27,343 nucleotides of DNA, taken from the IMG/VR virus record IMGVR_UViG_2695420565_000003; one strand, given 5' to 3'. This stretch comes from a virus (lineage: Duplodnaviria > Heunggongvirae > Uroviricota > Caudoviricetes). A model generated the notes under the pieces. The model worked only from the letters and a program-made list of their open reading frames with translations. It was not told the DNA's origin and ran no database searches. The translations under genes and the position numbers were made by a program. Each line of letters starts with the position of its first letter. Position 1 is the first letter of the stretch. Below, in pieces: positions 1-27,343 of the stretch.

Positions 1-127
1 CTCCTCCGGCAGAAGCAGAAAAAGCTTATTATGCTTCCATCGGAAACGATGATCTGGCAGCCTGAGTTCACAGATAAAACACTCTCCAGGAAACCCGGGG
101 CGGTTCAAACAGATTAGCTCTCTGGAT

Positions 128-547
128 TTGGCTAAAGAATTTGGAAAGAGACATCAAGATGTTTTGCGTGACGTTAGGTTAGTTTCTAAAAATACAGGAA
201 TTGCTTTTGTTGAATCTGTGTATGTAGATTCCCAAAATCGAAAAAAGTGTCACTATATGCTGTGTGGACAATTAGCAGATGCGATGTATAAACGCTATAA
301 CGGCTTACGTTTTGGTTTATCTACTGCCGAAAAGATTGCTCTTAACACTATAGAACAAGTTTTAGGTATCAACCTGATTCGCCAGTGTCGGGTGTTAAAC
401 TATCGAATTGATGGTTATGATCCGGTTAATAATATAGCTTATGAAATTGATGAACCAGAACACCAGTACAAGAAAGAGCAAGACGAGATCCGTCAACGAA
501 GAATTGAAAATGAGTTAGGATGCAAGTTTGTCCGAATCAAAGTATGA
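128..547 (+). CDS. Rha-like DNA-binding N-terminus fused to a DUF559/Vsr-like PD-(D/E)xK nuclease-like C-terminus; putative homing-endonuclease-like or regulatory protein, with TTG start or a frameshifted 5' end
   Basis: The N-terminus 'LAKEFGKRHQDVLRDV' matches the Rha-family signature (FGKRHxNVLRDI) as I recall it. The C-terminus 'YRIDGYDPVNNIAYEIDEPEH...DEIRQRRIENELGCKFVRI' resembles the DUF559/Vsr-type endonuclease core. There is no ATG at the 5' end (the track start at 128 is TTG) and the frame is open back to 53. Stop is TGA. Confidence 0.5.
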   Translation: MAKEFGKRHQDVLRDVRLVSKNTGIAFVESVYVDSQNRKKCHYMLCGQLADAMYKRYNGLRFGLSTAEKIALNTIEQVLGINLIRQCRVLNYRIDGYDPVNNIAYEIDEPEHQYKKEQDEIRQRRIENELGCKFVRIKV

Positions 548-551
548 TTTT

Positions 552-580
552 AGCCTCGCCTAGTGCGGGGCTTTTTTGTT
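552..580 (+). terminator. Rho-independent terminator after the 128..547 gene
   Basis: Stem AGCCTCGC / GCGGGGCT (one G-U pair), loop CTAGT, followed by TTTTTTGTTTT. Confidence 0.6.
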
Positions 581-592
581 TTCTATAGGCAT

Positions 593-617
593 AAAAAAAG
601 CCACTCCGAAGAGTGGC
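593..617 (-). terminator. Rho-independent terminator for the minus-strand genes, back-to-back with the + strand terminator
   Basis: On the minus strand this reads GCCACTC-TTCG-GAGTGGC followed by TTTTTTT (the complement of the A-run at 593-599). Confidence 0.6.
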
Positions 618-632
618 AAAGAGAATCAAAAC

Positions 633-866
633 TCAAAAACCTGTTGCTTCTACGATCTGACCATCACCGATCTGAACATAGAATTTAATATCTAACTTCT
701 TGATATTTTTATAGAATTGAGCTACCGATATAGCGTGCTCACTAAGAATCTGTTCTTTCGCTTCCTTCCCGCGATCCGCTGTATAGTAAGCGTAGGCAAT
801 ATCAGCCATCTGTTCAGCGTTAAAACGGGCAGGGCGACCGCGAGTAGCTTTAGTAGTCATAGTCAT
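633..866 (-). CDS. Small putative DNA-binding protein (77 aa)
   Basis: Open frame with an AT-hook-like 'TRGRPARF' and a helix-turn-helix-like segment 'LSEHAISVAQFYKNIKK'. TGA stop. Co-directional with the 895..1500 gene. Confidence 0.45.
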   Translation of the reverse strand: MTMTTKATRGRPARFNAEQMADIAYAYYTADRGKEAKEQILSEHAISVAQFYKNIKKLDIKFYVQIGDGQIVEATGF

Positions 867-894
867 TTCTCCAAATTAAAGTGAATGTTCACCT

Positions 895-1500
895 TTATTT
901 AGAGGACTTACATTTTATCGGAAAAAGTTCTCCATCGTCAACCGACATAAAGAACTCTGCCTTAATCCCGTACTTCTTCAACCGTGAATAGTATGTACCC
1001 CGACTTATATCAACCTTGCGCAGCACTTCGAAGAACTCTTTAGGATTCCTGTAATAGTGGCTATATCGCACGTTAGCGAGTTCTACAAACAATTCCCTTG
1101 TATCACCATAGCCTTTCTTAAAAGCCACGTTACGATAGCGTGTAATGGCATGATTCAATCTCTTCTGTTTAAGCACTTCCCTAATCGGTGTCCACTGCAA
1201 CCGATAGATTGGACCGTCATCCACTCGATAGAATCGCTTAATGTCAAAATCAAACCATTCACGAACTCTATTAAACTCTGTCTGTGATGTTCGGTGCTTC
1301 TTAAAGAAGTTGTGAATATCGGTATACCCATGATCGCGATACAACTCGATTAAAATCTGTTTAGCTTCCTCGCGACTAAAGCCGGATGTTGTGTAATCAG
1401 TCTTCTTGTGATGGTGCTTAACTGGCAAACGATATTCATGATCGGTACAACAAGAAAAGGCTAATTCTAATACATCTCTTTGTTGCTGATTAATTAGCAT
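895..1500 (-). CDS. Hypothetical protein (201 aa) with a C-terminal HTH-like segment
   Basis: Long open frame divergent from TerL. '[19 protein letters not shown]' resembles a helix-turn-helix. Function unknown. Confidence 0.5.
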
Positions 1501-23533: not shown

Positions 23534-24217
23534 ATGGCAACCAGTACCAATAAACGAAACGCTCTAAGGACTAAGAAAGCGTTACGGCAATGGTCTGAAA
23601 AGGCAACCGATACATTCGAAAGGGCACTAGGGGAAGGGGCGATCTTTGCTTCCAGAGCACTCCAGAAGAAGATTAACAAGAATGTTGATAGACCTACTCG
23701 CTGGACTCAGCAAGCTGTAGGTAATACCAACTACAAGAACCGATCAGGGACGAGACACCAAATCTTCATCAAGGGCGCAAGGGATAAGGACAAGAAGATC
23801 GGCAGTCAGGATGACTATCTGAAACACTATTTCGATGGGGGCAAAATCAATAAGCTAGTTCCAATCGCCAACGGTAAGGTCTTAGACTCCCACGGGAACA
23901 TTAAGGCCATTAAAGGCGGTAAGATGATGCGTAACATCGAAAATGGCAACTTCATCAAGGTAGAGAACCAGGAAGGGACTTTTATCATGAAGAAGTACAA
24001 GCCTAAGAAATCCCGAACCAAACGCGCTAGGAATGGATCTGCGGTGGCAAAACGTCGCTTAGAGAAACGCATACAGAAACAGAGTAAGCGAATTGTTGCC
24101 GTTAAGTCGGATAAAATTTCTACTCGTTATTCGACGCTAGGATCGTGGGAAAGCAACGAAGCAATGATGCTTGAAAACATCAATAAGCACATTAAATCGC
24201 GCATGAAATACGTTTAA
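23534..24217 (+). CDS. Highly basic (Lys/Arg-rich) hypothetical protein (227 aa)
   Basis: ORF with a GGGGG RBS. Strongly polybasic, suggesting nucleic-acid binding. Function unknown. Confidence 0.55.
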   Translation: MATSTNKRNALRTKKALRQWSEKATDTFERALGEGAIFASRALQKKINKNVDRPTRWTQQAVGNTNYKNRSGTRHQIFIKGARDKDKKIGSQDDYLKHYFDGGKINKLVPIANGKVLDSHGNIKAIKGGKMMRNIENGNFIKVENQEGTFIMKKYKPKKSRTKRARNGSAVAKRRLEKRIQKQSKRIVAVKSDKISTRYSTLGSWESNEAMMLENINKHIKSRMKYV

Positions 24218-24226
24218 TCAATAAAT

Positions 24227-24250
24227 ACCCTCATAGAATCTTATGGGGGT
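24227..24250 (+). other. Stem-loop after the 227-aa gene
   Basis: ACCCTCATA-GAATCT-TATGGGGGT (9-bp stem with one G-U pair). No T-run. The downstream arm doubles as the GGGGG RBS of the next gene. Confidence 0.3.
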
Positions 24251-24255
24251 ATAAC

Positions 24256-24603
24256 ATGGCTAAAAATATTTTCACTGAATTTCCTACTTATCCGGTTGAT
24301 CAGCTTTCCGGTATTTTTATTAATGGCATTAGCCCAGAATCAATGACCTATGATTTTGAGGCGAAGAGAGTTAAACATAAACAATATAAAGAATGTATCC
24401 GTGACCATGAAAAGGGGACCGTGTTTTGTGTCGCTACATTGGCTAAACGTCCTAAATATCGTTTTCGTGTAGGGCAAGAAGTCGATGTAGTTAATCCTTA
24501 TAGCTTTAACTGTCTGGGTGATGCACGCGCGGTGTGTGTAGGCACTGCTCCTTATTATATCAAGGGTATGCGCTTTATTGGTTATATCTTCGAAATGATC
24601 TAA
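24256..24603 (+). CDS. Hypothetical protein (115 aa)
   Basis: ORF with a GGGGG RBS. No recognised motif. Confidence 0.5.
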   Translation: MAKNIFTEFPTYPVDQLSGIFINGISPESMTYDFEAKRVKHKQYKECIRDHEKGTVFCVATLAKRPKYRFRVGQEVDVVNPYSFNCLGDARAVCVGTAPYYIKGMRFIGYIFEMI

Positions 24604-24612
24604 GGGGGTAAT

Positions 24613-24966
24613 ATGTTAAGTAAGCATTTTTCTCGCAAGGAATTTAAATGTAAATGCGGAAAATGTGATTATGATACAATCGACGCTGAATTACTGGTGA
24701 TTCTTGAGGATGTACGAGAGCACTTCGGGAAGCCAGTAATTATTAACAGTGGGAACCGTTGCCCGACTCATAATAAGAATGTTGGCGGCGCAACCAATAG
24801 CTATCATGTTCGAGGCCGTGCGGCTGACATTGTTATCAAGGGTGTCTCGCCTGATATTGTTCATGCTTATCTTGATGGGAAATATCCTACTCAATACGGC
24901 TTAGGAAAATATAAAACCTTTACGCATATTGATTCCAGATCAAAAAAATCACGGTGGAATGGATAA
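24613..24966 (+). CDS. Endolysin, peptidase M15-type (L-alanyl-D-glutamate / D-Ala-D-Ala peptidase fold)
   Basis: 'SGNRCPTHNKNVGGATNSYHVRGRAADI' and 'THID' match the zinc-peptidase M15 signature. RBS AAGGGGGTAATATG. No signal or SAR sequence. Confidence 0.8.
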   Translation: MLSKHFSRKEFKCKCGKCDYDTIDAELLVILEDVREHFGKPVIINSGNRCPTHNKNVGGATNSYHVRGRAADIVIKGVSPDIVHAYLDGKYPTQYGLGKYKTFTHIDSRSKKSRWNG

Positions 24967-24972
24967 AACAAA

Positions 24973-24997
24973 AGCGCCTCTGGTGGGCGCTTTTTTG
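24973..24997 (+). terminator. Rho-independent terminator after the endolysin gene
   Basis: AGCGCC-TCTGGTG-GGCGCT followed by TTTTTTG. Confidence 0.75.
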
Positions 24998-25111
24998 TTA
25001 GAATATGCTGGCGACGTTAGCTATATTTCTGACCATTTTTTCATTATAGACAAATATACCGCAGAAGATAAAGTGGTATTTGATGAAGCAGATCCGTCAC
25101 TGGTTGAAGCA

Positions 25112-25315
25112 ATGAAAGAACCGGAACCAGTAGAAGAAACTCCGGTAGTGGAACCAGTCATTGAAGAAGTTCAGCCAGCAGTTGAAGAAGTACCAGAAGT
25201 TAACGCAGAATCTCCGGTAGCCAACATTTTCTCTGACGAGGCAGAACATCGTTCTCCGGTACACGACACAGAAACATTTTGCGATCTTACTGGTTTCCAA
25301 AACTACAATAATTAA
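25112..25315 (+). CDS. Small acidic Pro/Glu/Val-rich protein (67 aa from this ATG; start uncertain)
   Basis: The track ORF (24929..25315) starts inside the endolysin gene and crosses the terminator, so the real start must be internal: GTG 25073 or ATG 25112. 'MKEPEPVEETPVVEPVIEEVQPAVEEVPEV...'. No strong RBS. Confidence 0.3.
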   Translation: MKEPEPVEETPVVEPVIEEVQPAVEEVPEVNAESPVANIFSDEAEHRSPVHDTETFCDLTGFQNYNN

Positions 25316-25325
25316 TTCTTATAAA

Positions 25326-25362
25326 TAGTAGTGAATATTATTTTATTGAGGATTCACTACTA
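25326..25362 (+). promoter_or_regulatory. Perfect 11-bp inverted repeat spanning the RBS and start codon of the 25362 gene
   Basis: TAGTAGTGAAT-(15 nt, containing TGAGG)-ATTCACTACTA. The right arm ends at the A of the ATG. Confidence 0.5.
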
Positions 25363-26360
25363 TGAATAATACTTTAGCAAAGGATATCGAATTTACCGCA
25401 AAAAGCAAACGTGCGACCCCTCCGGTCGAATATGAAACCAGAATCATTAAAGTTTGTCAAGCGCATGGATGGTTATACAGTGGTTTTGTGCTTCCTGTAA
25501 AGAAACCATTCCAGAACACCAAAGTTTGCATAGAAGTTAACGGAAAGGTTAAAACGCCATGTATTAGTCATGTTCTAACTGGTCAGTTTACTGGCAAAGA
25601 TAGAGTATCACCGCCTAAGAAGAAGTTTAGATTTACCGAAGAAGAACACTTAGAAAACGCTCGCAAGTTCTACAAGCCGATAGGGTGGGATGTGTTAGGT
25701 CTGGCTGAACCTTATCAGGGTGTTGACACTAAACTAATTCTTCGTTGTAAGTGCCACGGAAAGATTCACAAGAAAGGTGATTTACACAATAACCGCAGAC
25801 AAGGCGGGTTAACATGCCCTTTGGTTAGGGGGGTACTTAAATCAATTCAGAATGGTAGAAAACAGGTTATCAGAAACAAGTTTGCACAGCGCCCTATGCA
25901 CTTTTATCTAATTCGTGTTGGCGAGAAGTTTTTCAAATATGGAATTACCACTCGCAAAGATCCGATGCAACGGGTAAGAGAACACCAGAAGCACACCAGC
26001 GAGAAAATCACCTTTGAATGCTCACATTTGTTTAACATTGGATGGAAAGCTGGTGATTTAGAAATGGGGATTAAAAAGAATATTCAGGGCAAGAAAATCC
26101 CACGTAAGGTAATGAATAGCGGATTCACAGAAACGCTACCGATTAGCAAGCTGAAAGATGTTAAATCATTCATCAATGAATACATCCACACCAACCCATC
26201 TAAGCCAATGTATTTTGATGATACCAACGCAATCAATCTGAACAACTACATTAGTGATGAAGACATAGAACGAGATTTATCGCAGTGGATGAATGCACCG
26301 TTAGCTGATTTAATACCGGAAGACTTAGAACTCGATTTAAGCCCATTAGAGACACTCTAA
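25362..26360 (+). CDS. T5orf172 / GIY-YIG-like domain protein with an N-terminal Cys/His-rich region
   Basis: 'FYLIRVGEKFFKYGITTRKDPMQRVREHQ' has GIY-(x10)-YIG spacing followed by Arg residues, and the later 'SGFTETLP' resembles the T5orf172 GxTEWF box. The N-terminal half has 'RCKCHGKIHKKGDLH...CP'. Confidence 0.55.
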   Translation: MNNTLAKDIEFTAKSKRATPPVEYETRIIKVCQAHGWLYSGFVLPVKKPFQNTKVCIEVNGKVKTPCISHVLTGQFTGKDRVSPPKKKFRFTEEEHLENARKFYKPIGWDVLGLAEPYQGVDTKLILRCKCHGKIHKKGDLHNNRRQGGLTCPLVRGVLKSIQNGRKQVIRNKFAQRPMHFYLIRVGEKFFKYGITTRKDPMQRVREHQKHTSEKITFECSHLFNIGWKAGDLEMGIKKNIQGKKIPRKVMNSGFTETLPISKLKDVKSFINEYIHTNPSKPMYFDDTNAINLNNYISDEDIERDLSQWMNAPLADLIPEDLELDLSPLETL

Positions 26361-26375
26361 CGCAATTAAATTAAA

Positions 26376-26397
26376 AAGGGGTACGAATGTACCCCTT
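26376..26397. terminator. Bidirectional terminator between convergent genes
   Basis: Perfect AAGGGGTAC-GAAT-GTACCCCTT hairpin with A/T-rich flanks on both sides. Confidence 0.6.
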
Positions 26398-26433
26398 AAC
26401 TGTTTTAGCTCGTTATACGTCGATTTAGGCCGC

Positions 26434-27343
26434 TTAAATTCCAAATTCCTGTAATGGACCTGGTATTTCCTCTTCTGGCTTCCAGTCTTTATCTGTCAGC
26501 ATGTCTAAACATGGATGCAGAACAAGCCCGTTACTCTCCAGAATCTGCCTATCATTGATAGTTTTCAAATCGACAAAGATTTGTCCTTTCCTCGGTCCTC
26601 TTGAATTTTCTATTACAACTCTCTGGGTCTTGCCATCAATGTATTCCAATACAAACAAGTTTTTGTATTTGTCAATCCTGCTACACCCGATCCGTTTTAG
26701 AGCTTGCTTAATCTTAAACCGGACCTTAATGCGATCCTCGTTATAAACATCTTCTAAATCAAATTCTGCGAGCTTCTCCCAGCCTTGAGAGTCCACAGAA
26801 TACATTTCCTCTTCTGCCATCTTAATCTGATTGTAGAGTGTTTCACGCTCGCTATTGAGGGTAGTAATCTGATCGGCTAGCTCCTTCGTTGCTCCTGTCA
26901 TAGCAGAAAGGGCAATCAGGTTATCAATCTTGCGTGATATTTCATCAACCTGTACTTTCAACGCCGGAACCGGATTAGCCTTGTCCTCAGCAACCCAGAT
27001 TTTATCAGCCAGCAATTGCAATACAGCTTTCTCTAATTGATCACCTCGAAAACTCCAGTTTGTATGCACACATGCAATACGACTAGAGCGCATTGCATCG
27101 CATGAATAACGATATTGGTTAGGCCGTTTGTTAGTTCCTTTCACCTTAACCATAGCGGAACCGCAATGTTCACATTTCAGCAGATTAACACCACTAAGCA
27201 GGGGGATCGGTTTAGCTTCTTCTTTGTCTCCATAGTTACATGCTCTAACACCAATTGAACCGCCCCGGGAATCCTGGAGACTAAACTTCCTGAGAAAGAG
27301 GTAAACAGGATGACTAAAAATACTCGTTTTTCCCCTGAAGTCC
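26434..27343 (-). CDS. Large serine recombinase (integrase-type), C-terminal ~302 aa; the 5' part lies beyond the window edge
   Basis: The frame is open to the window edge upstream of the track start. It contains the zinc-ribbon signature 'LLSGVNLLKCEHCGSAMVKVKG...YRYSCDAMRSSRIAC', followed by a coiled-coil segment. TAA stop at 26434. Confidence 0.8.
   Translation of the reverse strand, partial: DFRGKTSIFSHPVYLFLRKFSLQDSRGGSIGVRACNYGDKEEAKPIPLLSGVNLLKCEHCGSAMVKVKGTNKRPNQYRYSCDAMRSSRIACVHTNWSFRGDQLEKAVLQLLADKIWVAEDKANPVPALKVQVDEISRKIDNLIALSAMTGATKELADQITTLNSERETLYNQIKMAEEEMYSVDSQGWEKLAEFDLEDVYNEDRIKVRFKIKQALKRIGCSRIDKYKNLFVLEYIDGKTQRVVIENSRGPRKGQIFVDLKTINDRQILESNGLVLHPCLDMLTDKDWKPEEEIPGPLQEFGI

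Follow-up and report, generated by a model that had tools for sequence, protein, structure and literature searches.

The recombinase gene at the right-hand end of the window (the whole stretch of viral DNA that was analysed, 27,343 nucleotides long) is very probably the 3′ half of the serine integrase of an Escherichia coli prophage that resides in hicB, split at codon 287 by the insertion sequence IS629 with duplication of the triplet AAT. A sequence-only reading of the window had recognised a large serine recombinase (LSR) here and had taken the gene to continue past the last base. The family assignment is borne out by intact homologues, 99.7% identical to the remnant, that carry the Resolvase, Recombinase and Zn_ribbon_recom domains. 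The continuation is not: homology to the recombinase stops at 27255, and positions 27256-27343 are the first 88 nt of IS629. The integrase gene is not one uninterrupted open reading frame (ORF), and what the window holds is an LSR pseudogene, not a functional member of the family; truncation or pseudogenisation had been named by that reading as the outcome that would count against its own proposal. The features to which the text refers are as follows.

26434..27255, minus strand: what is left of the large serine recombinase (integrase) gene at its 3′ end, namely codons 287-559 and the TAA stop
26434-26436, minus strand: TAA stop of the remnant, its frame free of other stops up to the window edge
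27010..27186, minus strand: zinc beta-ribbon of the recombinase type (Pfam PF13408), residues 53-111 of the 302-aa translation
26800..26970, minus strand: predicted antiparallel two-helix hairpin (coiled-coil motif), 3′ of the zinc ribbon, from an AlphaFold2 single-sequence model
26376..26397, both strands: terminator-like hairpin with a 9-bp stem and 5 GC pairs, from a consensus scan
27253..27255, no strand: left copy of the AAT target-site duplication, from comparison of the intact gene, the window and the partner contig
27256..27343, plus strand: left terminus of IS629 (IS3 family), a 100% match to nt 1-88 of the 1310-bp element
From 27256, plus strand: left terminal inverted repeat of IS629, which starts TGAACCGCCCCGGG
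27310, plus strand: start codon of IS629 orfA (MTKNTRFSPEV...)
1..107, plus strand: second IS629 junction, right end (last 107 nt, ...GGGGCGGTTCA), identical to the 1310-bp element
108..547, plus strand: 5′-truncated Rha-like regulator gene, Pfam PF09669 (Phage_pRha), E=1.8e-7
CYCZ01000064.1 (locus L009) 10001-10864: catalytic 5′ half of the integrase (residues 1-287), from an exact-protein look-up

The recombinase remnant and its junction with IS629

Four cysteines of the zinc ribbon are visible in the translation (CEHC, then C-x9-C), and Zn_ribbon_recom (PF13408) is recovered in the minus-strand frame at E=1.5e-9, with 38.5 bits against a Pfam cut-off of 25.3. In PHROG, the product of 26437-27255 (273 residues) aligns with integrase family phrog_95 (E=5.4e-16), and the alignment spans the zinc ribbon and coiled coil of that profile. 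The AlphaFold single-sequence model of the remnant is poor overall (pLDDT 46) and has one confident element, remnant residues 96-152, in which helices 96-120 and 124-152 reach pLDDT 79-94; as modelled, this two-helix hairpin is consistent with the LSR coiled coil. Because the Pfam zinc ribbon, the phrog_95 match and the AlphaFold hairpin agree with what had been read from the letters, the zinc-ribbon motif of the window is real and far above chance, and the coiled coil is probable. The HMM search that had been proposed as a check gives a divided answer: Pfam finds the zinc ribbon alone in the window frame, but the Resolvase and Recombinase domains are absent from the window and appear, both of them, in the intact allele.

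The intact genes with which the remnant shares 99.7% of its DNA are 559-codon genes of E. coli chromosomes, and comparison with them locates the break to the base. Around the insertion target the intact gene reads ...ACACCAATGCTTTTC (over a longer stretch, ...ACACCAATGCTTTTCTTAAGG). In the window, the junction reads ...ACACCAAT and is followed by the IS terminus TGAACC (TGAACCGCCCCGGG), whereas after ...ACCAAT the intact gene continues GCTTTTCTTAAGG; on the partner contig, the junction reads ...AAGAAAAGCATT, again followed by TGAACC, and the duplicated triplet is AAT on the plus strand of the window. Codon 287 begins at position 27255. A megablast search of 5,426 complete E. coli genomes finds the recombinase region in 53 of them, and among the matches listed every recombinase match ends at query position 956, which is window position 27255. 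For the last 88 nt of the window, 27256-27343, there are more than 22,000 matching places, which carry the annotation "IS3 family transposase". The reference copy of IS629 (locus L003) is 1310 bp long, runs from TGAACC to GGTTCA and is flanked by a 3-bp CAT duplication; GenBank LC567824.1 annotates a 100%-identical 1310-bp copy as "insertion sequence: IS3 family IS629". The full structure of the element, with orfA/orfB and a programmed frameshift, is seen in that reference copy, and at the integrase locus just its two ends are assembled, with terminal repeats (TG...CA) identical to those of the reference.

It is by chance alone that the minus-strand frame stays open across 27255, where it reads the insertion sequence in antisense: its first 29 residues (DFRGKTSIFSHPVYLFLRKFSLQDSRGGS) are the antisense translation of the IS629 end. 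The 302-aa product on record, WP_261289218.1, which RefSeq calls a "zinc ribbon domain-containing protein, partial", is the same misreading as that of the sequence-only reading, with antisense IS629 taken as protein. The shorter ORF of the window that begins with ATG (239 aa) has been deposited as CTW32452.1 and CTW87896.1, and an exact look-up of it in the contig index returned no record; the remnant products are deposited on contigs of 27,343 and 18,835 nt. The insertion at LSR codon 287 is seen just in two draft assemblies and one IMG/VR contig, and none of the 5,426 complete E. coli genomes searched has it. That IMG/VR contig, IMGVR_UViG_2695420456_000002, matches the window exactly when reverse-complemented and has the same end base; therefore, the window ends at a contig end within a repeat. 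A scan of GTDB species-representative contigs for the junction pattern found no match, and neither did a scan of viral contigs for the predicted right-hand junction (the right end of the IS, a gap, then GCTTTTCTTAAGG...).

The left end of the window is also an IS629 terminus, and the 27.3-kb window is a short-read contig bounded by IS629 at both ends. The Rha-like gene beside that terminus had been offered as support for a temperate phage; its Phage_pRha domain is indeed present, but the gene is truncated by the IS629 end at 1-107. The domain begins at residue 2 of the remaining frame, at the IS junction, and at residue 28 of the intact Rha of locus L004. The triplet at the Rha junction is AAC and that at the integrase junction AAT, and these are therefore separate IS629 junctions. 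An arrangement in which one IS joins both window ends into a circle was rejected on the same triplets, the partner of the AAT copy being CYCZ01000064.1. The window's variant of Rha upstream of about position 550 was found in no complete E. coli genome (megablast with window 108-900), and an N-terminal Rha stub of just about 36 aa is to be expected; for these reasons, the third contig, which would bear attL, was not traced. It is possible that the second junction, at Rha, reflects a rearrangement of the left part of the prophage.

The missing 5′ half of the integrase

The intact gene is represented by that of NZ_CM136169.1 (locus L004; WP_096843694.1, 559 aa), in which Resolvase (PF00239) occupies residues 6-153, Recombinase (PF07508) residues 198-286 and Zn_ribbon_recom residues 310-368; the catalytic domain carries the motif YIRFSS. 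The end of the Recombinase domain, at residue 286, coincides with the IS629 insertion point. A simple insertion predicts a 5′ product that reads ...AAG AAA AGC ATT, is closed by a TGA contributed by the IS terminus and is 287 aa long. An exact-protein look-up then found precisely this sequence on record, as CTW36118.1, CTW84712.1 and WP_261289211.1. It is encoded on CYCZ01000064.1, where everything between the 5′ half of the integrase and the contig end is the final 107 nt of IS629, in reverse complement. The catalytic half and the attachment site, which the sequence-only reading had proposed to seek by extending the sequence, both lie on this contig.

AAT stands on both sides of IS629, at 27253-27255 in the window and, as ATT, at 10859-10861 of locus L009. 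When the IS and one AAT copy are deleted in silico, the two halves join into a 1680-nt ORF with a single terminal stop; 3 nt and 1 aa (I374V) separate it from the intact allele. Since the healed ORF is intact, the insertion was simple and recent and is the sole lesion in the gene. The paired accession ranges (CTW32452 with CTW36118, CTW84712 with CTW87896), together with the contigs of 27,343 and 18,835 nt, suggest that both halves belong to the same two draft assemblies, GCA_001283765.1 and GCA_001285425.1. On the strength of the matching duplication and the exact termini, a single copy of IS629 probably bridges the two contigs.

The proposed sequence of events is short. IS629 (1310 bp) would have transposed into codon 287, between the recombinase and zinc-ribbon domains, and duplicated AAT in doing so. 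The 5′ half (residues 1-287) would then be closed by the TGA of the IS terminus, beside two small phage genes and attR. In LSRs, the zinc-ribbon domain and coiled coil are needed for recognition of the att sites and for control of synapsis, and the serine is needed for catalysis. After the split, the catalytic half would have no domain for reading att sites and controlling synapsis, and the other half, with the zinc ribbon, would be without the catalytic serine. Because these domain roles are established, the split integrase has probably lost its function, with neither half active alone; the prophage would be unable to excise or re-integrate by means of its own integrase, and would be locked in hicB.

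Prophage context and attachment sites

The suggestion that the structural region belongs to a prophage is supported by comparison with complete genomes. Positions 590-27255 of the window are collinear, at 83-96% identity, with the prophage of NZ_CM136169.1 (locus L004), a related element of about 37.3 kb that lies between two hicB fragments, with both junctions seen, and that carries genes for Rha, terminase, portal, capsid, tail, lysis and the recombinase. The search of host genomes for integrated copies thus had a positive outcome: related prophages lie in hicB of complete E. coli genomes, and the hicB location is seen also in the elements of O55:H7 DEC5A and of strain HCP5S3_I4. No second integrase is found among the annotated genes of the complete-genome relatives. 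In literature searches, nothing relevant to a hicB-integrating serine-recombinase prophage was found.

Along CYCZ01000064.1, ydcR comes first, then the 3′ part of hicB, two small genes (of 128 aa and then 81 aa) and the 5′ half of the integrase. The boundary between host and phage (attR) reads ...ATTATATTA/GGCAAACCTAAACAGG... (the slash marking the boundary), with hicB from nt 301; it lies inside hicB, beside ydcR, 1,049 nt upstream of the integrase ATG. The attachment site had been expected on the 5′ side of the gene, just beyond the window. The side is right, but the distance is not: attR lies about 3.1 kb past the window end, a stretch made up of the rest of the IS (1,222 nt), the remaining part of the gene (861 nt) and the sequence upstream of it (1,049 nt). 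The two ends of the L004 prophage share a 12-bp imperfect repeat, GGCAACCCTAAA on the left and GGCAAACCTAAA on the right, with the consensus GGCAA(A/C)CCTAAA, and the mismatch therefore places the crossover within GGCAA. These sequences suggest that the enzyme of the intact relatives recombines attP with an attB inside hicB, near GGCAA. The two sites would contain the following sequences.

Putative attP: ...ATATTAGGCAACCCTAAATG...
Putative hicB attB: ...GAATTGGCAAACCTAAACAGG...

In the reconstructed attP, a weak dyad symmetry (13/26) is centred on the AA of GGCAA, with arms GTTATTG(T)GGGG and CCCCAATAAC; this dyad around GGCAA is suggestive only. The phage-side arm beside attR has a G-run of 4 at locus L009 (8952-8990) and of 5 at L004 (47820-47851), and this 1-bp indel lies inside the putative attP arm.

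Several further observations concern the neighbourhood of the integrase. At locus L004 (10040-10551 and 47849-47968) the prophage cuts hicB at about nt 301-312 of 417, and the C-terminal part of the antitoxin is removed; next to it, in that strain, the hicA toxin gene carries a frameshift annotation. Between the remnant and a convergent 332-aa gene (25362-26360) lies the hairpin at 26376-26397, terminator-like when read in either direction. The 332-aa gene matches the PHROG endonuclease family phrog_681 (E=3e-20) and has no Pfam match; it is kept beside the integrase in relatives that match the query over 1-956 (H1, H11) and is absent from the DEC5A and HCP5S3_I4 elements. A megablast search of the phage collection with window 24000-27255 recovered no related cultured phage. 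The one DNA match to a cultured phage within that interval covers about 240 nt (25058-25298, in the ORF 24929-25315) at 78-82% identity, and corresponds to inh (inhibitor of prohead protease) of RB49-like T4-type phages.

Competing readings and relatives of the integrase

That an intact LSR gene simply runs past the window end into its catalytic domain has next to no chance of being correct. No stop interrupts the minus-strand frame before the window ends, and RefSeq calls the product partial and running off its contig, but the last 88 nt are an IS629 terminus where the intact gene has GCTTTTCTTAAGG, and the 5′ half is encoded elsewhere, on a different contig, as an ORF of 287 aa that ends at the other terminus of the IS. 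An assembly artefact, in which a chimeric contig end would disguise a gene that is intact in the chromosome, is very improbable. As is usual in short-read assemblies, both window ends and the end of the partner contig do lie in a multicopy repeat; the break, however, falls exactly at the canonical TG terminus on one contig and at CA on the other, with the same 3-bp duplication, and the same junction recurs in a second assembly and in the IMG/VR contig. Assemblers collapse repeats, and do not make precise junctions of a terminus plus a duplication. That the recombinase is accessory invertase or resolvase cargo and not the integrase of the prophage is likewise very improbable. Some depositors have named the protein "site-specific invertase; DLP12 prophage", and its identity to the YbcK-like proteins of lambdoid phages, whose integrase is a different one, is about 30%. 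Against this, it is the sole annotated recombinase in the complete-genome relatives viewed, and its gene lies 1-1.5 kb from the host junction (in hicB at loci L004 and L008, in ycdX at L006), or about 3.5 kb from it at L007, where IS1A and IS5 intervene. It has, moreover, the full LSR architecture, at 559 aa as opposed to about 190 aa for an invertase, and the imperfect repeat common to the prophage ends is just 12 bp long, as serine and not tyrosine integration would predict.

The other alternatives accept the insertion by IS629 at codon 287 and differ from plain decay of the integrase in what they make of it. That the lock is reversible through excision of IS629 by an IS-excision enhancer, or that the remnant is expressed as an att-binding protein, is very improbable. 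The gene has no lesion other than IS629, and the frame stays open for 135 nt into the antisense strand of the IS. The candidate expressed products would be the 239-aa ATG ORF or a GTG-started chimera that begins 135 nt into the element. A promoter scan, however, found no sigma-70-like site in the remnant or upstream of it within the window, and the many other decayed alleles of the integrase (an IS1A cut, a 292-aa fusion, other truncations) point to plain decay. Genes can become active again when IEE excises members of the IS3 family (PMC9397093), which leaves a small chance for a more specific form of the reversible lock: that the enhancer of the host precisely removes IS629 in some cells and so restores the hicB-targeting integrase and, with it, excision. 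Precise excision would be conceivable here because the gene has no other lesion and the element belongs to the IS3 family and retains an intact duplication.

The intact protein is already in RefSeq, as a "recombinase family protein". Among LSR phage integrases are those of phiC31, Bxb1, Listeria A118/LI and the SprA type of SPbeta, and the intact allele resembles them in the order Resolvase, Recombinase, zinc beta-ribbon with a predicted inserted helical hairpin. The resemblance extends to the position of the gene at the prophage end, to insertion inside a host gene and to the short imperfect repeat at the junctions. The window gene differs from these integrases in being split, with the C-terminal 273 residues alone present. 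A phmmer search of PDB sequences found no solved structure that matches the intact protein at E<=1e-3. The best tblastn matches in the phage collection are gp53 of Burkholderia phage Bcep176 and the YbcK-like recombinases of lambdoid Escherichia phages (4A7, and Perceval, "Large serine recombinase"), which cover 80-85% of the intact protein at 28-31% identity; their genomic contexts differ from that of the hicB integrase, and no hicB attB is known for them. Among genome contigs, the intact protein matched just a 512-bp contig and, weakly, a MAG. The 512-bp contig (locus L012; JANCAF010000145.1, from an Actinacidiphila cocklensis assembly) encodes integrase residues 168-337 at 84% identity, and is most likely contamination of an actinomycete assembly.

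IS629 insertions in prophage genes of E. coli are commonplace. The whole 1310-bp copy is found in 168 Stx phage records; the IS ends seen here are 100% identical to the known element, and the 3-bp AAT duplication parallels the CAT of the reference copy. Decayed alleles of this integrase are also frequent, and include the IS1A cut, the 292-aa fusion to ynfF and several other truncations. The 292-aa allele occurs on at least 85 contigs; after codon 285 it runs straight into mid-ynfF sequence, and no IS lies between the two (locus L010 4001-5810; GCA_047986505.1, DBFQKK010000001.1). Gene orientations at the fusion fit an inversion of about 150 kb between the hicB prophage and ynfF, and its breakpoint lies 3-6 nt from the IS629 target of the window. 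In HCP5S3_I4 (L007 4882-7284, NZ_CM149869.1), the 5′ end of the integrase has been lost to IS1A, and the element also contains IS2 and IS5; in PRO_A-1412-6M-A_ESBL (L004 26072-27052), ISKpn26 lies in the head/tail module. A relative integrated in ycdX (L006 4635-8357, NZ_CP195866.1) has 93% DNA identity over the recombinase region, window 26300-27255.

A reading frame that runs off a contig is no evidence that the gene continues, and the present case corrects both the sequence-only reading and the RefSeq record. The prophage is probably one more that has been grounded by an insertion sequence in its integrase, a routine step in prophage domestication. If the lock were reversible, the integrase restored would come from a clade that is at most 31% identical to any phage LSR in the collection. 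The intact relatives define an E. coli serine-integrase clade with a predicted target in the hicB antitoxin gene and a close variant in ycdX, which may be of interest to collectors of serine integrases and att sites; the hicB and ycdX relatives would form a natural pair for the change of att-site specificity in close serine integrases.
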